DNA of 64,000 nt from a virus (lineage: Duplodnaviria; Caudoviricetes): IMG/VR virus record IMGVR_UViG_3300006116_000001, positions 193-64,192 of that record. One strand, given 5' to 3'. This document shows positions 10,776 to 23,383 of this stretch, in pieces. The translations under genes and the position numbers were made by a program. Each line of letters opens with the position of its first letter. Positions within the stretch are counted from its first letter, which is position 1. The notes beneath the pieces are model-generated. The model was not told the DNA's origin and searched no databases. It was given only the letters and a program-made list of their open reading frames with translations.

Positions 10776-11486
10776 CTAGAGGTCCGCAGCAAGGTCTTCT
10801 GCTACTTTTTTATCTCTAACCATGGCAGAGTGCTTGGTACGCCAAATTAAGCATTCCTCAGCAATCTTTCTTTTGTAGTTTAAGGCTGAATATTCACCCC
10901 TATAAAGATGTTCAATAAGCCTTACAGCTGTTGAGCCGTTTACTGATACTCTAAAAATAGACCTTGCTGTTCCAACTTTTGGTCTCTTATAGCCAAAACC
11001 TTCAATCCAGTCTGCACACCTAGTCATGTCATGTAGGCTGCCAGACCAAGCTATAACTGGATATCTATAGCCTCTGTTTTTAACCCAAGCAACTGTTCCA
11101 TCACCGTCGCAAAGACCTCGCCAAAAATGCTTAGATTCGTATATATCCTCTCGCAGTTCTTTTTTAAGATTTAAGGCTAGGAGAGGATAATATGGCTTTG
11201 ACGAGGAAGCAATATACATTTGACCCTTAGTCTCTCCAGTTAATTCATCCTTTTTAGCAAAGCTATTTTTTCCATGTTTTCTTGATGAAACTTTTCCTTC
11301 GCCTTTAACGTAATATAAAAAAGCTTGAACAGGTTCCTCGTGAACCTGTGCAAATACCACGCAACCTCCTTTTTTTCTGTATAGACCAGGTTTATATTCC
11401 TGGCCTACAATAGAGTTCATACAACCGTCTGCTTGAAGATACCCTATCCAATACAGGTCTTGGTCAGTCAAAGGATCAGTAAACAT
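10776..11486 (-). mobile_element. Free-standing double-motif LAGLIDADG homing endonuclease, antisense to its neighbours
   Basis: YWIGYLQADGCM and HFWRGLCDGDGTV motifs; AT-rich; opposite strand to the operon. Confidence 0.85.
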
Positions 11487-11562: not shown

Positions 11563-12510
11563 TTGGCAAACGCTAGAGGTAAGGAGATAGACACCACCGA
11601 CCTTGACATCGACGCCGGTGAGGAAAGAATAATTCAGCACAGAGACCTCAGCGCTCATGTTTGGCGATGGACCCATGTTGCTAAACGTCTTGGGACAGGC
11701 GGCCGTTATAAGACCTCTAACGTGCTTGACATAGGCTGCGGTTGCGATCTTCCCTTGGCCCGTATGCTATACTCAAACCGCTTTATTCCAAATGACTATT
11801 GCGGCGTGGACTATAACCCGTCAAAAAAATTTAAGACCTCCATGTTTAATAACGGTCGCTTTCCGTTATACGCCTATGGCGCCGTAGACTTTGCCTCAGA
11901 AAAGGTTCTCATTCGCCCTCCTGAGATGGGGGAGATCACTGACAGCCTATGCCTATATGTTGATGGGGATAACTTTGAGGCCGAGCACACCCTACCCAAC
12001 GTTTTAGTATCGTTTGAAAACCTAGAGCACGTCGAGGCGGGCCACATCAGGCGCCTGCTTATAAAGATGCTAGAGGTGATGCGAGCCACACTTAGGGTTA
12101 AAAATGAGGAGCCTGTGGCCTTTATCTCAACACCTTGCTATGACGCCAAGGTTGGGGCTGCTGCTAACCACTGCAGCGAGGTAACTCGAGACGCCCTAGG
12201 GGCCGTCATGGAGGACCTAGGTTTTTCTATCCTTGAAAACTATGGGACTTTTGCCTCTATCAAGGACTATAGGGATAACCTGCTCAAAGAACGCCCCGAG
12301 CTTACAAGGCTTTATCATGAGCTCCACGCCTACTATGACGTTAACGCTCTAGCTAACTTTTTTGCACCAATTGTCCCACAGTGGTCTAGAAACAACATAT
12401 GGGTTGTTGGGATAGCAAAGGAAGGCTATGAACGTAGGTTCCCCTCCCTCTCAAGCGTCCCTGGCCCCTGGACCTCTAGCGACCGCTGGCGTGAGCTGGC
12501 GGGAGAATAG
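11563..12510 (+). CDS. Class I SAM-dependent methyltransferase (small-molecule type)
   Basis: VLDIGCG motif I; YCGVDYN motif II; VSFENLEHV; AFISTP; TTG start with GGAG RBS. Confidence 0.8.
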   Translation: MANARGKEIDTTDLDIDAGEERIIQHRDLSAHVWRWTHVAKRLGTGGRYKTSNVLDIGCGCDLPLARMLYSNRFIPNDYCGVDYNPSKKFKTSMFNNGRFPLYAYGAVDFASEKVLIRPPEMGEITDSLCLYVDGDNFEAEHTLPNVLVSFENLEHVEAGHIRRLLIKMLEVMRATLRVKNEEPVAFISTPCYDAKVGAAANHCSEVTRDALGAVMEDLGFSILENYGTFASIKDYRDNLLKERPELTRLYHELHAYYDVNALANFFAPIVPQWSRNNIWVVGIAKEGYERRFPSLSSVPGPWTSSDRWRELAGE

Positions 12511-12551: not shown

Positions 12552-13127
12552 GTGACAACGGACACCCCTCGAGACAAACTCTATAGAGACACCGCCCGCC
12601 GGATAGTCGAGATCATCTACCCGGAGGCTTCACCCGAAAGAAAAGGCAACGCCATGCGGACGGTCGTCCACCAGATGCGTGAAAGCCTCGCCCTGATGAC
12701 CCACGACATCAGGGAGTTTCATGAAAAGTTTGGCCTAGGCTACGACGGGCCGCCAAGGCTGCTTTCCCACGACCTTCGTGAGCTACGAGCCAAGCGGCTG
12801 ATAGAGGAGGCCGAGGAGTACCTTAACGCCGACCTGTCAGAGGAGCAGGACGAGGACGGCGTAAACTTTCAAGCCACCCCCGAGGAGCAGATGGAGGCCG
12901 AGCTAGACGCCCTCGTCGACGTCGTGTACGTGGCCCTTGGGACAGCCTACCTAAGCGGCTACCCCTTTGCCAAGGCATGGCAGCGGGTCCATGCGGCCAA
13001 CATGGCCAAGGTTCGCGCTGAGCGGGCAGAGGACAGCAAGCATGGCTCAACCTACGACATCATAAAGCCTGAGGGTTGGGTCCCCCCGTCACACAAGGAC
13101 CTTTTGTTCCCGTCAGCTGAGGGGTAG
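12552..13127 (+). CDS. All-alpha NTP pyrophosphatase (MazG-like/DR2231-type dUTPase family)
   Basis: LIEEAEEYL...ELDALVDVVYV...AWQRVHAANMAKV...IIKPEGWVPP. Confidence 0.85.
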   Translation: MTTDTPRDKLYRDTARRIVEIIYPEASPERKGNAMRTVVHQMRESLALMTHDIREFHEKFGLGYDGPPRLLSHDLRELRAKRLIEEAEEYLNADLSEEQDEDGVNFQATPEEQMEAELDALVDVVYVALGTAYLSGYPFAKAWQRVHAANMAKVRAERAEDSKHGSTYDIIKPEGWVPPSHKDLLFPSAEG

Positions 13128-13133
13128 CCTCCC

Positions 13134-14165
13134 ATGCCCCTTCAAAGTTTTCCAATAATAGCCCTTGTTGGGCCCGATGCAACAGGCAAGTCGACACTAG
13201 CTGCCAAGCTAGGGGAGCTCTACAACTACCAGTATCAGCACGCGACCTACCGGTTTAAGGACAAGATGGACCTCTACCACCTTGCCTACCTTGACCTTGC
13301 CTTAAGGAAGTCGGTCAACGGCCCCGTCGTCATGGACCGTTGGTGGCCGTGCGAGCACGCCTACGCTGAGGTCTTTCGCCAAGGCCCCAGCTCCCCCAGC
13401 TACCAATGGCCCTACTACGGGCAGATGCTTGACCGTGTCGCCCTTAAGCACGGCGTCCTTTATGTCTTTTGTTTGCCTAGGGACAAGGGCCGATACTTGG
13501 CCCACTTTGATAGGACAAGGCGGCAACGACCTGAGATGTTTGACAGCGTCTCAGCCGTCTATGACCAGTATGAGAGGCTCCTTAGCGGCCTTAAGGGCCA
13601 CCCTAACCTTATACGCTACGACATCTTTGACGACGCCAAGCCTTTTTACTCCGAGCTTAACAGCCTGGCGTGGCGCTCGTTTGTCTCGGCCACCTCCGGC
13701 GCCGACTTTGCCGCAGGTATTGACGACCGGCGCTTTGCCGGTAACCTTAACGCCAGGCTTCTTTTGATTGGGGATAGGTCTAACAAACGCACGAGAAGGA
13801 CCTCCTACCCCTTTATCGCCGGCCACTCTTGCTCGCCCTGGATCACTAGGGCCCTAAGCAACCTTGGCGTCAAGGAGGCCGACGTGGCCTGGGTTAACCT
13901 TCATGACGAGAGGGGCCGCGTCCAGTGGACCAAGGTCGAGCTTGACGCCTTCTATCACATGACGTTTGTGGCGATGGGCGCCTCTGCCCAGGCCTCCTTG
14001 ACCAAGATGGGCTATCGCTTTGAGCGGGTCCCTCACCCGCAATACTACACAAGGTTTCACCACCATGTGACCAGGCCTGAGCGGCTAGTCAAGCTGTTTG
14101 AGGACCACGGGCTTTTTTCTACGCCAGCCAAGGTTATCTATGACCCTCTTAGGGAGTATGCGTGA
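13134..14165 (+). CDS. P-loop dNMP kinase fused to a uracil-DNA-glycosylase-like domain
   Basis: GPDATGKST Walker A and MDRWWPCEHAY (TMK-like DR motif); C-terminal LLLIGDRSN...VAMG...VPHPQY resembles the UDG fold. Confidence 0.7.
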   Translation: MPLQSFPIIALVGPDATGKSTLAAKLGELYNYQYQHATYRFKDKMDLYHLAYLDLALRKSVNGPVVMDRWWPCEHAYAEVFRQGPSSPSYQWPYYGQMLDRVALKHGVLYVFCLPRDKGRYLAHFDRTRRQRPEMFDSVSAVYDQYERLLSGLKGHPNLIRYDIFDDAKPFYSELNSLAWRSFVSATSGADFAAGIDDRRFAGNLNARLLLIGDRSNKRTRRTSYPFIAGHSCSPWITRALSNLGVKEADVAWVNLHDERGRVQWTKVELDAFYHMTFVAMGASAQASLTKMGYRFERVPHPQYYTRFHHHVTRPERLVKLFEDHGLFSTPAKVIYDPLREYA

Positions 14166-15037
14166 TGGTTGCCGCTAGGATGGAAAAAGACAAGACGCCT
14201 AGCACCAAGATAGAAAAAGGCAAGACGCCCAACGTCAACCAGGTTTGGCTTTCCCTACTTGAGGAGATCATGATAAGGGGCCAGGAGTGCGCCCCAAGGG
14301 GGAAGGCGATCAAGGAGCTTTTGGGCTATCAGACAAAAATTAGCATGAGAAGCCCCGTAGTCACGGTTGCCGCAAGACGCCTTGGCTATAGGTTTGCCGC
14401 AGCCGAGGCCGCCTGGATCTTGTCAGGGGACAACCGTGTCTCCACCATCGCCCCTTACGCCTCCCACATCTCACAGTTTTCTGACGACGGCCTGAGGTTT
14501 TTTGGCGCCTATGGGGTCAAGGTCGTTGACCAGCTGCCCTACGTGTGTGAGGCCCTTGCCAAGGACCCCGACACCCGTCAGGCTGTCATAAACATCTGGC
14601 GAGAGAGCCCTAGGCCCTCTAAGGACATCCCCTGCACCTTGTCCCTTCAGTGGCTCATCAGGGATGGTAGCCTACACTGCCTTGACACCATGCGCTCTTC
14701 TGACGCCTGGCTTGGTTGGCCCTATGACGTCATTAACATGAGCCTAATCAGCGCCTACATAAGGCTTGTCCTTAAAACTAGGTATGGCGTTGAGGTTGGC
14801 CTTGGGGACCTAACGCTGACCGCGGGCTCCCAGCATCTGTACGCTGACAATTGGCCCGCTGTTCAAAAGATCCTAGCTGGCGATGACCTAGCCTTGCCTA
14901 CCCCAGACCTTCAGGTGGCTCTCGAGAATATTCCGCTTATTGCTCTTAATACTGAGAACCTTGTTAGCTGTCTTTGGCATATGGCTAACCACGGAGGCCT
15001 TTTAGACGGGATGTCTTTGGCGGAGAAAGGCCTTTGA
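14162..15037 (+). CDS. Thymidylate-synthase-family pyrimidine C5 (hydroxy)methylase, Asp-type
   Basis: DPDTRQAVI, DIPCTL (catalytic Cys), MRSSD, LGWPYDV (Asp where ThyA has Asn177), GSQHLY. Confidence 0.85.
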   Translation: MMVAARMEKDKTPSTKIEKGKTPNVNQVWLSLLEEIMIRGQECAPRGKAIKELLGYQTKISMRSPVVTVAARRLGYRFAAAEAAWILSGDNRVSTIAPYASHISQFSDDGLRFFGAYGVKVVDQLPYVCEALAKDPDTRQAVINIWRESPRPSKDIPCTLSLQWLIRDGSLHCLDTMRSSDAWLGWPYDVINMSLISAYIRLVLKTRYGVEVGLGDLTLTAGSQHLYADNWPAVQKILAGDDLALPTPDLQVALENIPLIALNTENLVSCLWHMANHGGLLDGMSLAEKGL

Positions 15038-15504
15038 ACCGCCCTGACGCCCACACCTACTTTATGTCGATGGCTATCCTTGTCTCAACAAGGGGCACGT
15101 GCCCTAGGCGAAGGGTTGGCTGTGTCCTTGTGGACAGCAACAATTTTGTCCTAGCTACTGGCTATAACGGGACCGCCTCAGGGCTTCCCCACTGCCTAGA
15201 CCAGCCCTGCCCAGGGGCAGGGCTGGCATCGGGGCAGGGGCTAGAGCTTTGCGAGGCCGTTCATGCTGAAAGTAACGCCCTAACCCAGTGCCGTGACACT
15301 CGTGCTATCCAGTCGGTCTACGCCACCACCGCCCCCTGCGTCTCATGCACCAAGATGCTCATAAACACCAGCGCTAAAGCCATCTACTATCTCAGCGACT
15401 ACCCTCAGAAGGAGGCCGAGGGCCTTTGGCGGCGGTCAAGGCCTGGGCGTGAGTGGGTTAGATGGACCGGGACCCTCTTAAGGATGGGGTTTCATGAAAG
15501 GTAG
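15034..15504 (+). CDS. dCMP deaminase (ComEB family)
   Basis: TCPRRRVGCVLV, ATGYNG, VHAESNAL, PCVSC zinc ligands. Confidence 0.92.
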   Translation: MNRPDAHTYFMSMAILVSTRGTCPRRRVGCVLVDSNNFVLATGYNGTASGLPHCLDQPCPGAGLASGQGLELCEAVHAESNALTQCRDTRAIQSVYATTAPCVSCTKMLINTSAKAIYYLSDYPQKEAEGLWRRSRPGREWVRWTGTLLRMGFHER

Positions 15505-17458
15505 AAAATTTGTCCCTAACCCAACGCAGCTCCCCCTTTTCACCCCTGAGTCAGCGTGGCGGTGCCCTGACCCGATAGACTGGCCGGATTTTAGGGGGAG
15601 CTGTAAGGTAATAGGGTTAGATATAGAGTCTTATGACCCAAATCTATTAGAAAGAGGTCCAGGCTTTATCAGGGGTGACGCTCGTGTGGTTGGTATCTCT
15701 CTTGCCTCTGGTGATGGCCAAAAGATCTACCTTCCTATAGGCCACAGTCAGGACAATGTAGCTGATGTTAGGCAAGCTATTAACTATGTAAGGTATCAGC
15801 TAGGCGACCCAAGCATACTCTACTGTGGGGCCAATCTTTTATATGACCTTGAAGGGCTCCATACCCTAGGCATAGAGGTTAAGGGAAAGCTAGGAGATAT
15901 ACAGGTTGCTGAGCCTCTACTAGATGAAGAAAAAGAAGGCGGGTATAGCCTTAACGCGTTAGCTAAAGAATACCTTAATGAAACTAAAGATGAGCTTATA
16001 TTAAACGAGGCTGCTGCGGCATACGGTGTTTCTCCAAAAGGCGGGATGAATATTATACCAGCCCGATTTGTTGCTGAATATGCCGAGACCGATGCCTACC
16101 TACCAGTAAAGATATTTGAAAAGCAGGCAGAGTCTTTAAAAAAAGAAGATTGTTGGGGCGTTTTTCTTATGGAGCAAAGGCTTCAAAAAACGCTATTAAA
16201 GATGCGCTTAAGAGGCTGTAGGCTTGATGTTTTAAAGACTGAGCAGCTAAACGAGCAATTTTTAAAGGATGAGGTTCTATACTTTTCTAATGTTCAAGAG
16301 CATAGGGGGTTAGGCCCAAGGATTAACCCTGCATCAGCCGTAGACGTAGCAAGGGTGCTTCGTGAGCAAGGCGTGTTTGATATCCCGGTCACAGCAAAAG
16401 GTGCTGACTCCATATCAAATGAGTGGTTAGAGGGTCTTGACCTACCATTTGCAAAGGCAGTATACGCTTGGCGAAGGGTAGCCAAGTACAGAGGAGATTT
16501 TATTGAAAAATTCCTAAAAGAACAGGTTAAGGGCCGCCTTCACTCAAACTGGCACTCACTACGTAATTTTAACGAGGAAAAAGGCTCAGCCTTTGGAACA
16601 AGGTCCGGTAGACTCTCTGCAACTAATGTAAACTTGACCCAAATACCGGCAAGGGATGAGGAATATGGGTCAGTTATACGTAGTCTTTTTATAGCAGATG
16701 AAGGTAAAGTTTTTTTAAAGGGGGATGAGTCACAACAGGAATTTAGATGGACTCTTGACTATGCCGTAAGACTCCGTTTAACAGGTGCTGCTGAGGCTAA
16801 CCAGCGCTATCTAGATGACCCTAGGACCGACTTTCACTCTATGACCCAAGCCCTAATACTTGAAAAAACCGGTCGTGATATAGGGCGCTTCATGGCTAAG
16901 ACTGTAAATCTTTCAAGGCTTTATGGCGCCGGGGTAAACAAAGTTTCACTGATGTTAGGAGTTACTCCTGATGAGGCCAAAACAATAATAGAGGCTTGGA
17001 ACGCAGGCCTGCCTTTTGTTAGAGAGCTTGAGGCAAGGATAACAAAGGCAGCTAATGAAAGGGGTTGGGTAAAAACAATATCAGGGTATAAAAGAAGGTT
17101 TCCTTTATGGGAGCCAGCTGATAGACAAGCCTTTGGTTATGTCAAACCAATAAAAGACCTTAATAAAGCGATTAAGCTTTGGGGTAAGGTAAAGCGAGCT
17201 TACACGCACAAGGCCATGAATAGCGTAATTCAAGGAAGTAGCTCTTCGCAGATAAAGCAAGTGCTAATTCAACTTGATGATGAAAACCTAACCTGTAATG
17301 CCTGCATCCATGATGAGGTCATAGGTTCTTATGAAACTAACGAGGAGTTTAAAAGAGTCAAATGGATCATGGAAAATGCTGTAGAGACAAAGGTACCTTT
17401 TCTTGCAGACGTTGGTGTGGGTCCTAATTGGGCAGAAACTAAAAAAATTACTGACTAA
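15494..17458 (+). CDS. DNA polymerase family A with 3'-5' exonuclease
   Basis: GLDIES, GANLLYDL, YAETD (exonuclease); SGRLS; GDESQQEFR (motif A); AKTVNLSRLYG (motif B); IHDE (motif C). Confidence 0.93.
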   Translation: MKGRKFVPNPTQLPLFTPESAWRCPDPIDWPDFRGSCKVIGLDIESYDPNLLERGPGFIRGDARVVGISLASGDGQKIYLPIGHSQDNVADVRQAINYVRYQLGDPSILYCGANLLYDLEGLHTLGIEVKGKLGDIQVAEPLLDEEKEGGYSLNALAKEYLNETKDELILNEAAAAYGVSPKGGMNIIPARFVAEYAETDAYLPVKIFEKQAESLKKEDCWGVFLMEQRLQKTLLKMRLRGCRLDVLKTEQLNEQFLKDEVLYFSNVQEHRGLGPRINPASAVDVARVLREQGVFDIPVTAKGADSISNEWLEGLDLPFAKAVYAWRRVAKYRGDFIEKFLKEQVKGRLHSNWHSLRNFNEEKGSAFGTRSGRLSATNVNLTQIPARDEEYGSVIRSLFIADEGKVFLKGDESQQEFRWTLDYAVRLRLTGAAEANQRYLDDPRTDFHSMTQALILEKTGRDIGRFMAKTVNLSRLYGAGVNKVSLMLGVTPDEAKTIIEAWNAGLPFVRELEARITKAANERGWVKTISGYKRRFPLWEPADRQAFGYVKPIKDLNKAIKLWGKVKRAYTHKAMNSVIQGSSSSQIKQVLIQLDDENLTCNACIHDEVIGSYETNEEFKRVKWIMENAVETKVPFLADVGVGPNWAETKKITD

Positions 17459-18270: not shown

Positions 18271-18864
18271 ATGAATACAAACGCTATAGACCCCGAGCTA
18301 TTAAGGGAGGCCCTTGACGACGCGTCAGAGGCCCCCTCAGACGACAAGCTTAGCCTGGTCGCAAAGCTCGTTAAGCACCAGACCTACCTTGAGGACCGCA
18401 AGGAAGACCTCGAGGAGATGCTAAAGGAGTGCAACCAGGAGCTAGAGGCTGTCCGCACGAGGCAGCTTCCGGACGCCCTCCTAGAGGCCGGCTGTCAGGC
18501 GTTTGAGACAAAGGACGGCCTTAAAGTCAGGCTTGAAAAGGTCTGCTACGTCTCAATCAAAAAGAGTGATGAGCCGGCGGCCTTTGATTGGTTTGCCAGC
18601 AACGGCCATGGCGGTGTCATTGAAACGTCTGTCCTCATCCCCCTTGGAAAGGGTGGCCACGACACCGGAAAGGAGCTTGTTGAGCGCCTAGCTAAGCTAA
18701 ACGACGTCCCTGAGGTTAAGCTCTCAGAGACCATCCACTGGGCCACGCTAAGGGCCCTTGGCAAGGCGTTAATAGCCGAGAACGAGGAGGCCGGGACCCC
18801 CTTGCCCCCTGAGATCATCAAGCTTACCCCGACTAACGTCTCTAAGATCAAGAGACCTACCTGA
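18271..18864 (+). CDS. Conserved phage replication-region protein (coiled-coil N-terminus)
   Basis: 197-aa ORF, AAGGAG RBS; position between nuclease and SSB-like genes. Confidence 0.6.
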   Translation: MNTNAIDPELLREALDDASEAPSDDKLSLVAKLVKHQTYLEDRKEDLEEMLKECNQELEAVRTRQLPDALLEAGCQAFETKDGLKVRLEKVCYVSIKKSDEPAAFDWFASNGHGGVIETSVLIPLGKGGHDTGKELVERLAKLNDVPEVKLSETIHWATLRALGKALIAENEEAGTPLPPEIIKLTPTNVSKIKRPT

Positions 18865-18918
18865 ATTTAAGATCAAGAGACCTGCCTAACCAACCCCACC
18901 TAAAAGGAACCATAAAAC

Positions 18919-19734
18919 ATGTCTAAAAATGCAGTTGCAGTTAAAGAAAGCGCTGAGGTCGTTGAGGCCTCCTTGCCTGCGGGCTATGACCTTGATGAGC
19001 TTCAAAGGGACGCCGCGGCCAACCCTCAGCTAAGCGCCGCCGACATCGCCATCCCCTTCTTGGTCATCCTTCAGACCAACTCGCCTCAGGTCAACCCCGC
19101 CAAGACCCAGTATATCCCTGGCGCCACGGCGGGGATGATCTATAACAGCGTCAGCGGGGAGGTCTACGACGGCCGCACCCAAGGGGTGGTAATCGTCCCT
19201 TGCGCCTATCACAGGGCCTACGTTGAGTGGGTTCACCGCGACAACGGTGGCGGCTGGGTGGCGGAGCACAGCATTGACTCCGACATCTTGTCTAGGACCA
19301 CCCTTGACGAGAAAAAGAAGCCTCGGCTTGAGAACGGCAACGTGATCACCGAGACTGCCTACAACTACGTCTTGTTTCAAAACCCCACGACCGGCGCCTG
19401 GTCCCAGGCCCTTGTCGCCATGTCATCTACCCATCTCAAGGCCAACCGCAAGCTCAACCAGATGATCACGGCCTCAAAGATCCCTGGCACGGACATCCAG
19501 GCACCTCGGTTTTTGTACGCCTACCAGCTGACCTCTACCATCGAGACCAAGGGCGAGAACGCCTTCTTTGTGCCGGAGCTTAAGAAGATCGAGAGCCCCA
19601 TCGAGGTGACCCTCTACCGCCACGCCAAAAAATACGCTGAGGCGGTGAACAGCGGTAAGGTTCAAGTTGGGGCCGCCACCCAGGTCCCTGCCGCCGAGGA
19701 AAGTATCGACCCGGAGACCGGTGAGATCCTTTAG
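18919..19734 (+). CDS. Putative single-stranded DNA-binding/recombination protein
   Basis: 271-aa ORF with acidic C-terminal tail (EESIDPETGEIL) in the replication module; high-expression codon style. Confidence 0.5.
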   Translation: MSKNAVAVKESAEVVEASLPAGYDLDELQRDAAANPQLSAADIAIPFLVILQTNSPQVNPAKTQYIPGATAGMIYNSVSGEVYDGRTQGVVIVPCAYHRAYVEWVHRDNGGGWVAEHSIDSDILSRTTLDEKKKPRLENGNVITETAYNYVLFQNPTTGAWSQALVAMSSTHLKANRKLNQMITASKIPGTDIQAPRFLYAYQLTSTIETKGENAFFVPELKKIESPIEVTLYRHAKKYAEAVNSGKVQVGAATQVPAAEESIDPETGEIL

Positions 19735-22295: not shown

Positions 22296-22489
22296 CCTAC
22301 CGCCGCCTTTTCCTGCGCCCCGACCCATCAACCCCGGACCACGTTCACATTGGCCTAGAGACGCCAACAGGGGCCATCTTCTTCCTCTCCGCACCTTCCC
22401 TACCCCGACCCCGCGCGGAGGCCCTCCTGGCCAAAATTTCGGCCCACAGCACAGTCAACCCCACCCACTGGTCTCAAACTTATGGCTGA
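22292..22489 (+). CDS. Hypothetical early protein
   Basis: ATGA-coupled ORF. Confidence 0.55.
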   Translation: MTYRRLFLRPDPSTPDHVHIGLETPTGAIFFLSAPSLPRPRAEALLAKISAHSTVNPTHWSQTYG

Positions 22490-22922
22490 TCCTTCACCAC
22501 CCTCGACCCTTCACCCGCCTTACCGCCGCCAGCCTTCAGTCATTCAACGCCTAGAGGCGCAAATCGACGCCCTCAAGCGCGAGAACGCTCGCCTCAGAGC
22601 CAGCAACGAGATCCTTCAACAGCGCTCGATCGTCACACACTTCACAGCCCCGCCGCCATTAAAAATGCCGCCGCAGGAAACAATCCTCCTGGCCGCCCTC
22701 CTTAAAGGCGGTCTTAAAAGCAAGAGCCATCTGCTAGACATTCTCGCCGACCACAACCCCACGCCGCCTGGCGTAAAGATCGTCGACGTCTTGGTTTGTC
22801 GCCTGCGCAAACACCTGCGCCCTCACGGCGTCACCATCACAACCGTCTGGTCAAGAGGCTACATGATGACCCCTCAACAACTCGATCAGTTCTACAAAGC
22901 CTTTCCGGACGCAAAACGATGA
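22482..22922 (+). CDS. CtrA-like OmpR/PhoB winged-helix protein lacking a receiver domain
   Basis: KIVDVLVCRLRKHL...ITTVWSRGYMM versus CtrA KIIDVFICKLRKKL...IETVWGRGYVL; N-terminal coiled coil. Confidence 0.8.
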   Translation: MADPSPPSTLHPPYRRQPSVIQRLEAQIDALKRENARLRASNEILQQRSIVTHFTAPPPLKMPPQETILLAALLKGGLKSKSHLLDILADHNPTPPGVKIVDVLVCRLRKHLRPHGVTITTVWSRGYMMTPQQLDQFYKAFPDAKR

Positions 22923-23383
22923 CACCTTGGTCCCCTGAAGAAATTGCCACGCTGCAACGGCTCATCACCAAAGAAGGCAAGTCCTTTGGCGAGTGCGCCA
23001 AGATCCTAAATCGATCACGAAATGCGGTGGCCGGCAAGGCTTACAATTTGCAACTCAAGGCCCCTGACGCTAAACCTATGTTAACAAGGGTTGCAGCTAA
23101 ACCCCGCCTACCATCTAACGCCCGCCACGCCAAGCCCGACGCGCCGCTTTACGTCGCTTCAAGCCTGCCCACGCTCCTCCACAATCCCGACCCGCAGCTC
23201 GCCATCCCAATCATCAACAACGGCCAATGCAAATGGCCGATCGGCGACCCTCAACACCCCACATTCCGCTTCTGCACAAACCAACGCGCCAACGACCACC
23301 AGCCCTACTGCGCAACCCACAACGCTAAAGCCTTCATCAAGCCCAACGTCCCAGCAACCAAACTCAAAACAGGATTTCCCTAA
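22919..23383 (+). CDS. gcrA: GcrA cell-cycle regulator homologue
   Basis: WSPEEIATLQRL...SRNAVAGKAYNL (HTH) and CKWPIGDP...FRFC...PYCATH (Cys-rich domain); ATGA-coupled start at 22919. Confidence 0.9.
   Translation: MTPWSPEEIATLQRLITKEGKSFGECAKILNRSRNAVAGKAYNLQLKAPDAKPMLTRVAAKPRLPSNARHAKPDAPLYVASSLPTLLHNPDPQLAIPIINNGQCKWPIGDPQHPTFRFCTNQRANDHQPYCATHNAKAFIKPNVPATKLKTGFP

Follow-up and report, generated by a model that had tools for sequence, protein, structure and literature searches.

Hypermodifications of phage DNA decide survival against restriction, type IV nucleases and some CRISPR systems, and have supplied epigenomics with tools such as the T4 glucosyltransferases. To our knowledge, the groups known to decorate hydroxymethyl-pyrimidines comprise sugars, carbamoyl groups, and amino acids or polyamines. 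In phage T4, the scheme leading to 5-hydroxymethyl-dCTP (hm-dCTP) comprises the gp56 dCTPase, the gp42 dCMP hydroxymethylase, the gp1 dNMP kinase and the dCMP deaminase cd. The T4 alpha- and beta-glucosyltransferases, the arabinosyl- and hexosyl-transferases, the 5-hydroxymethylcytosine (5hmC or hmC) carbamoyltransferase and the 5-hydroxymethyldeoxyuridine (5-hmdU) DNA kinase pathway share one logic, in which a thymidylate-synthase (TS) homolog makes a hydroxyl handle and a second enzyme decorates it (PMC13326640; PMC12783734). The transformations of the hydroxymethyl handle given as known in a 2025 paper are glycosylation, amination and carbamoylation (PMC12783734). Here we analyse a window of 64,000 nucleotides (positions 193 to 64,192 of the IMG/VR virus record IMGVR_UViG_3300006116_000001; Duplodnaviria, Caudoviricetes), which covers nearly the whole of a phage genome that is complete at 64,192 bp and has direct repeats at its termini, and in which the gene for a HEN1-like class I S-adenosylmethionine (SAM)-dependent methyltransferase (MTase) stands at the head of a set of nucleotide enzymes. 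Our favoured, though tentative, reading is that MTase O-methylates the hydroxymethyl group of hydroxymethyl-deoxycytidine (hm-dC), either in a nucleotide or in DNA, to give 5-methoxymethylcytosine, the same two-step logic with a new second step.

Four neighbours of the MTase gene reproduce the enzyme set of the T4-type hm-dCTP pathway function for function. T4 itself is without such a methyltransferase, and in the window the pyrophosphatase is MazG-like and the kinase is of the thymidylate kinase (TMK) type with an added uracil-DNA glycosylase (UDG)-like domain. As with the known hydroxymethyl-pyrimidine decorators, the decorating gene is found only together with a hydroxymethyl synthase; unlike them, MTase has an unrelated fold and would transfer a methyl group from SAM instead of a sugar, carbamoyl or phosphate group.

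Linkage of the methyltransferase gene to a thymidylate synthase homolog

The gene under study and its partner are as follows.

11563-12510, +, HEN1-like class I SAM-dependent methyltransferase (MTase), 315 residues, TTG start; Methyltransf_23 and family profile
14162-15037, +, TS homolog with a 5-hydroxymethyl-dCMP (5-hm-dCMP) synthase signature: L143D, C146, S167, D169 retained, N177D (ThyA numbering)

The open reading frame (ORF) at 11563-12510, picked out by a reading made from the sequence alone, is a real gene and not a chance ORF, given its Pfam score, 328 metagenomic homologs, 315 sequence clusters and a confident AlphaFold model. Its TTG start codon has a GGAG 9 nt upstream and is fixed by the homologs, since all of those aligned begin with MANxRGK at the same point. 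In Pfam MTase matched PF13489 (Methyltransf_23) alone, at 31.7 bits against a gathering cut-off of 27 over residues 50-225, and its homologs in metagenomic data are also precomputed as PF13489; no family was assigned in PHROGs and no NCBIfam model matched even at E<=1. The AlphaFold model (52 homologs in the alignment; pLDDT 93.9, pTM 0.92) has a seven-stranded class I fold in a single domain, into which a small beta-subdomain is inserted near residues 100-145; the extensions at the N terminus (1-50) and C terminus (230-315) are conserved.

The closest solved structure to the window TS homolog is MilA. In ThyA numbering, N177D is diagnostic of a dCMP substrate, L143D/E of a non-methyl product and D169N of a 5-hydroxy-dCMP synthase (Lee et al. 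2026, PMC13326640). The window homolog reads SKD(143)-IPC(146)-T and MRS(167)SD(169)-AWLGWPY-D(177), hereafter D/D/D. The ribo-preferring enzymes MilA and BcmA carry Ala176 and Lys133, where the deoxy enzymes carry Ser and Arg (Zhao et al. 2016, PMC5175136); the window homolog has Ser and Arg at these positions, and is therefore of the deoxy type. With both the D/D/D signature and these two residues, it fits the pattern of a T4-type 5-hm-dCMP synthase, and its predicted product is 5-hm-dCMP. A 5-hydroxycytosine pathway was considered and ruled out, as D169 is retained. The sequence-only reading had listed 5-hydroxy-dCMP and 5-hydroxymethyl-dUMP beside hm-dCMP as substrates for MTase; the first is made unlikely by D169 and the second by Asp177, which specifies cytosine and not uracil.

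A gene-neighbourhood survey, which the same reading had suggested as a check, found MTase together with an Asp-type TS in all loci with enough flanking sequence but the two described below. A family profile recovered the 328 relatives in IMG/VR (best E=3e-197), and the best 80 loci were surveyed with iterated hidden Markov models (HMMs). A TS homolog lay within 5 kb of the MTase gene in all 50 IMG/VR loci having at least 3 kb on both sides, and the 13 IMG/VR loci without one were all truncated on the relevant side. When 27 more loci were sampled from a branch resembling that of Stenotrophomonas phage AXL3 (about 31% identity), TS was present within about 2 kb in 26, the exception being a contig cut 367 nt after MTase. 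On contigs of metagenome-assembled genomes (MAGs) TS adjoins MTase where the flank suffices, and across about 120 loci in all TS was found within 5 kb wherever the flank sufficed, in both cases apart from two loci, L120 and L126. The genome of L120 has a D/D/D TS elsewhere (L127); L126 holds a remote relative, 26% identical and with no cassette gene nearby, which is taken to be outside the family. At L120 (NHDW01000006.1, a 305-kb contig in a Methylococcaceae MAG bin) the MTase gene is surrounded by many small ORFs and by genes for an HNH endonuclease, a P-loop kinase of AAA_33/zeta-like type, and HD-domain and thioredoxin-like proteins, and the contig may be a jumbo phage or large prophage.

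The TS partner was of one kind. Asp was found at all three of ThyA positions 143, 169 and 177 in 67 of 69 TS-family ORFs from the first 80 loci, with one such ORF in each TS-bearing locus, and the remaining two were ordinary ThyA genes beside a D/D/D copy in the same locus. Further sets gave 24/26 (AXL3-like branch) and 5/7 (MAG loci), the rest being canonical ThyA or ORFs in which the pattern was unmatched. In the two closest relatives of the window phage, a second, canonical ThyA with Ala/Asp/Asn at 143/169/177 and a PCH motif (L004:1741-2589 and L005:1314-2288) lies about 6 kb upstream of MTase, besides the D/D/D enzyme.

The MTase-TS pair is kept together in at least 8 gene orders, so simple inherited synteny is an insufficient explanation for it. 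The reverse dependency fails: the pelagiphages HTVC200P and HTVC119P, which hold the closest isolate homologs of the window TS (about 51% identity, D/D/D), have the synthase without MTase. The dependency is one-way, in that MTase was not found without the hm-dCMP synthase (L126 set aside) and the synthase was found without MTase, and this is the pattern expected of an enzyme using the synthase's product. In HTVC200P the D/D/D gene is gp014 (L084:5001-5819), annotated as a thymidylate synthase, and MTase, MazG and dCMP deaminase genes are absent nearby, as they are in HTVC119P; these two pelagiphages may have hmC genomes, judging from the synthase residues.

The family is broad and essentially phage-only. 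Clustering at 50% identity gave about 315 clusters at E<=1e-30 and 488 at E<=1e-10, whereas 185,579 species genomes yielded 13 matches, all on MAG contigs, and the neighbours of MTase in the ESM Atlas are viral. Five GenBank phage records carry MTase (AXL3 twice, Pseudoxanthomonas phage PW916 and two Manatee Spring genomes); the cassette was found in all 3 of the records inspected. At the nucleotide level the cassette had no match among isolated phages.

In the window, MTase opens a co-directional run that continues with the MazG-like, kinase, TS, dCMP deaminase and DNA polymerase (PolA) genes, packed with gaps of at most 41 nt or small overlaps. The order of pyrophosphatase, kinase and TS after MTase, as the sequence-only reading had it, was seen with both Pfam and PHROGs. 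That reading had also called MTase the head of an operon, which holds for its first-gene position only, the single upstream promoter-like site being weak and within chance. The other members of the run, and the gene before it, are:

10776-11486, -, LAGLIDADG-type homing endonuclease (PF14528, phrog_4645)
12552-13127, +, MazG-like all-alpha nucleoside triphosphate (NTP) pyrophosphatase (PRA-PH; Pfam and PHROGs), inferred dCTPase-type step
13134-14165, +, two-domain fusion of a dNMP kinase, with a TMK/deoxynucleoside kinase (dNK) fold (residues 1-190), and a UDG-like fold of family 4/5 (about 190-330), by fold search
15034-15504, +, dCMP deaminase (Pfam, PHROGs)
15494-17458, +, family A DNA polymerase (PolA) with a 3'-5' exonuclease domain; steric-gate Glu kept (DESQQEFR against DYSQIELR in Klenow)

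The MazG-like gene is directly 3' of MTase in most loci. The kinase matched 2axp (Z 14.6) and vaccinia TMK (Z 13.7), and its UDG-like part matched 2d3y (Z 11.3) and 1l9g (Z 11.1); Pnkp1 came at rank 48 (Z 9.6). A Pnkp-Hen1-like RNA repair pair formed by MTase and the neighbouring kinase was ruled out on this TMK/dNK and UDG-like fold. A genome containing 2'-O-methyl-ribonucleotides was likewise ruled out, by the PolA steric-gate Glu and by the deoxy-specifying Ser and Arg of TS.

Relationship to HEN1 and a putative metal centre

The three motifs reported by the sequence-only reading are all in place: VLDIGCG at residues 54-60, SFENLEHV at 150-157 and ISTP at 188-191. They overlap three conserved blocks, for which invariance was called on an alignment of 52 family members.

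11722-11742, +, SAM-binding motif I VLDIGCG, residues 54-60; D56, G58, C59 and G60 invariant; HEN1 counterpart DFGCG
12016-12030, +, E152-N-L-E155-H156, short helix directly after beta-4; invariant in the 52 members; aligned to HEN1 E796, E799 and H800
12127-12180, +, STPCY...NH(203)xxE block after beta-5; STP aligned to HEN1 STPN; H203 invariant

When the family profile was run against all Protein Data Bank (PDB) sequences, plant HEN1 (3htx) was the best match (E 3.9e-5), followed by human HENMT1 (5wy0 and 4xcx, E 4e-4) and bacterial Hen1 (3jwi, 3jwg, 3jwj and 3jwh, E 2e-3 to 1e-2). The sole match outside the HEN1 family at E<=0.01 was a Rickettsia protein lysine methyltransferase (5doo, E 0.004), and UbiG (4kdr) gave a weak, non-significant match over beta-4 and ExxEH (E about 0.08). 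In the HMM alignments to 3htx, 5wy0 and 3jwi, TCfEvlEHv corresponds to TCLEVIEHM and fiSTPcy to VSTPNY; HMMER places E152, E155 and H156 opposite the motifs of HEN1 and HENMT1 that read EVIEH and ELIEH, and the alignments end at STPxY. Searches of PDB sequences with the single MTase sequence gave nothing useful, and with the STPCY...NHxxE segment alone nothing was found.

In HEN1 the target hydroxyl is held and activated through the Mg/Mn ligands E796, E799, H800 and H860. The last of these is in a short helix that follows beta-5, and both ligand helices have been described as HEN1-specific (PMC10781085). DSSP assignment of the MTase model placed beta-4 at 147-151 with a short helix at 152-157, and beta-5 at 185-192 with a short helix at 200-202 beside H203, and N202, H203 and E206 are kept in 81 of 81 aligned rows. 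H203 is thus the likely fourth metal ligand, equivalent to HEN1 H860.

Structure searches with the model (Foldseek, VIA folds) were broader in their results. The top match was the E. coli tRNA cmo5U34 methyltransferase CmoM (SmtA; 4htf) with Z 17.8, root-mean-square deviation (rmsd) 4.0, 209 residues aligned and 13% identity, followed by ChlM (Z 17.2), LCMT1 (Z 15.8), HEN1 (3htx_D; Z 15.7, with 188 residues aligned at 19% identity and rmsd 3.0) and, with Z about 15, cap N7 enzymes; another structural neighbour is DhpI, a phosphonate O-methyltransferase. The highest identity among the structural matches belonged to HEN1 entries (19-20%). A viral structure library returned one uncharacterised phage homolog together with generic cap- and Hen1-like giant-virus enzymes. 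As the profile matches at E<=0.01 were all of the HEN1 family except 5doo, the sequence profile is more discriminating here than the fold searches.

MTase thus resembles HEN1, HENMT1 and bacterial Hen1 (3htx, 5wy0, 3jwi, 4xrp) in its class I fold, D-x-GCG motif I, ExxEH after beta-4, STP(N/C) on beta-5 and probably the conserved His that follows, and differs from them in overall identity (about 15-20%), in its N-terminal (1-50) and C-terminal (230-315) regions, and in being restricted to phages, where it accompanies an hm-dCMP synthase in a pathway of 2'-deoxy nucleotides with no Pnkp and no dsRNA-binding domains. The curated bacterial Hen1 model of NCBIfam (TIGR04074), which spans the full 462-position protein including its N-terminal domain, had no match in MTase or anywhere in the phage genome; no Pnkp-type gene was found beside MTase, and no dsRNA-binding domain in this single-domain protein. 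FxPP is an N-terminal motif characteristic of Hen1, and was found in 0 of the 52 family members. With no NCBIfam match, no Pnkp partner and an essentially phage-only distribution, MTase is not a Hen1 orthologue. A fair conclusion from the profile matches and conserved residues is that it represents a new branch, confined to phages, of the O-methyltransferases that use a metal, its nearest solved relative being HEN1, and the small-molecule O/N-methyltransferase likeness first suggested gives way to a likeness to the HEN1 family of metal-dependent RNA ribose 2'-O-methyltransferases. HEN1 as nearest solved relative indicates O-methylation of a hydroxyl, and the two probably share a metal-assisted reaction of that kind.

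Two other O-methyltransferases deserve comparison. CmoM O-methylates an oxygen on a pyrimidine C5 side chain in nucleic acid, but its target is a carboxylate and not an alcohol, it stands within about 2 Z units of many class I enzymes, and it is absent from the profile search matches. UbiG/Coq3 enzymes, in the Methyltransf_23 neighbourhood, are divalent-cation-dependent O-methyltransferases, and some sources automatically annotate members of the MTase family as UbiG-like; their substrates, however, are membrane quinone intermediates, and the phage has no such pathway.

The exclusion of DNA methyltransferases by the sequence-only reading held. For N6-adenine and N4-cytosine enzymes, motif IV, (D/N/S)PP(Y/F/W), is absent from MTase and from the family consensus, and Pfam gave no N6_N4_Mtase or MethyltransfD12 match; for C5-cytosine enzymes, marked by a catalytic Cys within PCQ and by ENV and QxRxR motifs, there was no PF00145 match in the window MTase. 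That reading was correct on the absence of (D/N/S)PP(Y/F) and mistaken on that of "PC", as the dipeptide P191-C192 is present in STPCY. This is not the C5-methyltransferase motif, because C192 is variable (Asn in several relatives) and MTase has no Pfam C5-methylase domain.

Proposed chemistry and competing explanations

A cultured carrier points to modified DNA. Phage AXL3, which carries the cassette as gp27-gp31 (MTase being gp31), has DNA that was cut by 2 of 37 restriction enzymes, both with A/T-only sites (AATT and TTAA), and that resisted all 35 enzymes with G/C in their sites; its authors concluded that G or C is modified, the base not being identified (PMC7504290). At the top of the MetaGPA table (PMC8670742, supplement 2), Thymidylat_synt, dCMP deaminase, PRA-PH and DNA_pol_A were the domains most enriched on cytosine-modified viral contigs, which supports the role of the cassette and is silent on MTase. 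A Pfam scan of 20 other non-structural ORFs of the window found no glycosyltransferase or other DNA-modification domain, and it is on this, together with HEN1-type chemistry and the 5-CH2OH made by the cassette, that O-methylation of hmC is proposed. Among the cassette steps MTase is the sole one without a known counterpart, and its suggested place as the novel step agrees with what we found, a modified-cytosine pathway being the best-supported role.

The gene, its fold, its relationship to HEN1 in sequence, its obligate linkage to TS homologs of the hm-dCMP type and the resistance of AXL3 DNA to restriction at G/C-containing sites are observed; from them we infer O-methylation as the reaction, the hydroxymethyl group as its acceptor, and what the other enzymes of the cassette do. 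The MazG-like enzyme would convert dCTP to dCMP, which the TS homolog would turn into 5-hm-dCMP; the cassette kinase and a host NDP kinase would raise this to the triphosphate for incorporation by PolA. MTase would transfer the SAM methyl group to the 5-CH2OH oxygen, with a HEN1-type Glu/Glu/His/His metal centre activating the hydroxyl. The 5-CH2OH group is proposed as acceptor because the cassette nucleotides are 2'-deoxy, PolA keeps its steric gate, and the hydroxyl that the cassette creates is that of 5-CH2OH. The product, 5-methoxymethylcytosine in virion DNA, would be an inexpensive equivalent of T4 glucosylation, made without sugar, and would conceal hmC from hmC-reading nucleases.

More tentative still is the general form of this proposal, that hundreds of environmental phages, AXL3 and PW916 among them, replace cytosine with 5-methoxymethylcytosine through a HEN1-like metal-dependent methyltransferase, the first of its lineage to be recruited from RNA ribose to a DNA base side chain. 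Our literature search found no report of this MTase family, nor of a Hen1-like enzyme in phage cytosine modification. If the proposal is true, a simple methyl ether derived from SAM would add a new chemical class to the decorations and be the cheapest known mask for hmC, the HEN1 lineage would gain a new kind of substrate, and the enzyme might serve for selective 5hmC tagging. Two cultured phages carry the cassette, of which AXL3 is a proposed phage-therapy candidate with unexplained restriction-resistant DNA.

Several points weigh against methylation of the hydroxymethyl group. ExxEH is present in UbiG/Coq3-type O-methyltransferases as well and so is not unique to HEN1. The structure searches returned generic class I methyltransferases with no clear winner, CmoM, ChlM, LCMT1 and HEN1 being roughly tied (Z 15.7-17.8), and the equivalence of H203 to H860 comes from position and invariance, with no computed alignment. 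Known HEN1 enzymes act on RNA and chelate the vicinal 2',3'-diol, which deoxynucleotides lack, and as the hydroxymethyl group offers a single hydroxyl the metal geometry would differ from that of HEN1. Linkage between genes of phage replication modules is in part a matter of inheritance. Plain hmC, with no methylation, could account for the resistance of AXL3 DNA to restriction, no Methyltransf family stands with the domains of significant enrichment that head the MetaGPA table (PMC8670742), and our search of the literature brought up no phage DNA reported to contain a methyl ether of hmC.

Whether MTase would act on the nucleotide or on DNA is a matter on which the evidence is balanced. A word-indexed search for longer, fused forms of MTase found none, and those described here were recovered by an exhaustive profile search. 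In P0259 (L129:6001-7491, 5 contigs) MTase is fused to a MazG-like PRA-PH pyrophosphatase; this fusion, the acidity of the family (median pI 6.0) and a local clustering of conserved Arg and His residues along its N-terminal helix (R22, H26, R27, H32, R35, H38 and K41) argue for a nucleotide. In P0256 (L128:8001-10097), whose cassette also has a D/D/D TS and ThyX, it is fused to an N-terminal PF00145 C5-cytosine DNA methylase with FAGGF, NPPC, FESV and QVRKR motifs, and at L057:8852-9898 a separate homolog of that domain has a start overlapping the MTase stop; these were the only two cases in which a genuine PF00145 domain was seen as a fused or adjacent module. The fusion with its catalytic motifs kept, the abutting gene and the mostly post-replicative nature of known hydroxymethyl-pyrimidine decorations (PMC13326640) argue for DNA. 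At the P0259 locus PolA carries an N-terminal UDG domain (PF03167), similar to the fusions of PolA and UDG recently reported in phages whose thymidine is modified (PMC13697223).

The linkage to TS and the fusions to MazG and C5-methylase modules would be equally expected if MTase acted on the cassette cytosine nucleotide or phage DNA at another atom (N4, N3, the 3'-OH or a phosphate oxygen), giving a doubly modified cytosine or a methylated precursor. The acidic family's N-terminal Arg/His cluster could bind phosphate, and DhpI is a structural neighbour. We consider this unlikely, since the (D/N/S)PP(Y/F) motif typical of exocyclic-amine methyltransferases is absent, a 3'-O-methyl nucleotide would terminate DNA chains, and the Glu/Glu/His(/His) centre matches hydroxyl-activating enzymes in a cassette whose own hydroxyl is 5-CH2OH.

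Improbable to a similar degree is that MTase is a genuine HEN1-type RNA 3'-terminal ribose 2'-O-methyltransferase, which might guard RNAs of phage or host, such as tRNA, small RNAs or primers, against exonucleases, tailing or renewed cleavage, with its position beside nucleotide genes reflecting a shared early or replication module. Every significant PDB sequence relative except 5doo is indeed an RNA 3'-end 2'-O-methyltransferase, HEN1 has the top identity among the structural matches, and the ligands of the ribose-diol metal are conserved. Yet wherever the flanking sequence suffices MTase is accompanied by a TS gene of the hm-dCMP type, in spite of many rearrangements and with no other context seen; the lack of a bacterial Hen1 match, Pnkp partner and FxPP motif and the low median pI also speak against an RNA end-methylase, as do the absence of tRNA genes from the window and of RNA ligase or repair domains from the scanned ORFs. 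Were it true, the tie between a DNA-modification module and a phage-encoded Hen1-like end-methylase of RNA would itself be a surprise.

The bacimethrin pathway comprises a CMP hydroxymethylase, an N-glycosidase, a methyltransferase and a kinase. Although Pfam places MTase in Methyltransf_23, many of its structural neighbours are small-molecule O-, N- or carboxyl-methyltransferases, and a TS closest to MilA beside a kinase with a UDG-like fold loosely recalls that gene set, methylation of a small molecule in a bacimethrin-like antimetabolite route, or, as a regulatory step, of a host or phage protein, instead of a DNA precursor is very improbable, given the Ser/Arg of TS where MilA and BcmA have Ala/Lys, the dCMP deaminase, MazG-like enzyme and replicative PolA of the cassette (domains linked by MetaGPA to modified-cytosine viral contigs), and the modification of AXL3 DNA at G/C-containing sites.

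Cultured phages and other genes of the window

In AXL3, gp28 (L002:9304-10113) was published as a thymidylate synthase and has the active-site residues of a dCMP hydroxymethylase; the phage also encodes ThyX, which would supply dTMP. PW916, with a reported nucleotide identity to AXL3 of about 90%, has an ORF60 with the published annotation deoxyuridylate hydroxymethyltransferase.

The two-domain kinase-UDG form was seen in about two thirds of related cassettes, the remainder having the kinase only, of about 200 residues. Upstream of the run in the window, the homing endonuclease gene separates MTase from an exonuclease gene; it probably inserted into the replication module as a mobile element. 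Elsewhere in the window are CtrA-type (Trans_reg_C) and GcrA-like genes (22482-23383, + and 18271-19734, +), together with Pam3 gp33/gp34-like proteins, and the CtrA/GcrA pair suggests an alphaproteobacterial host.

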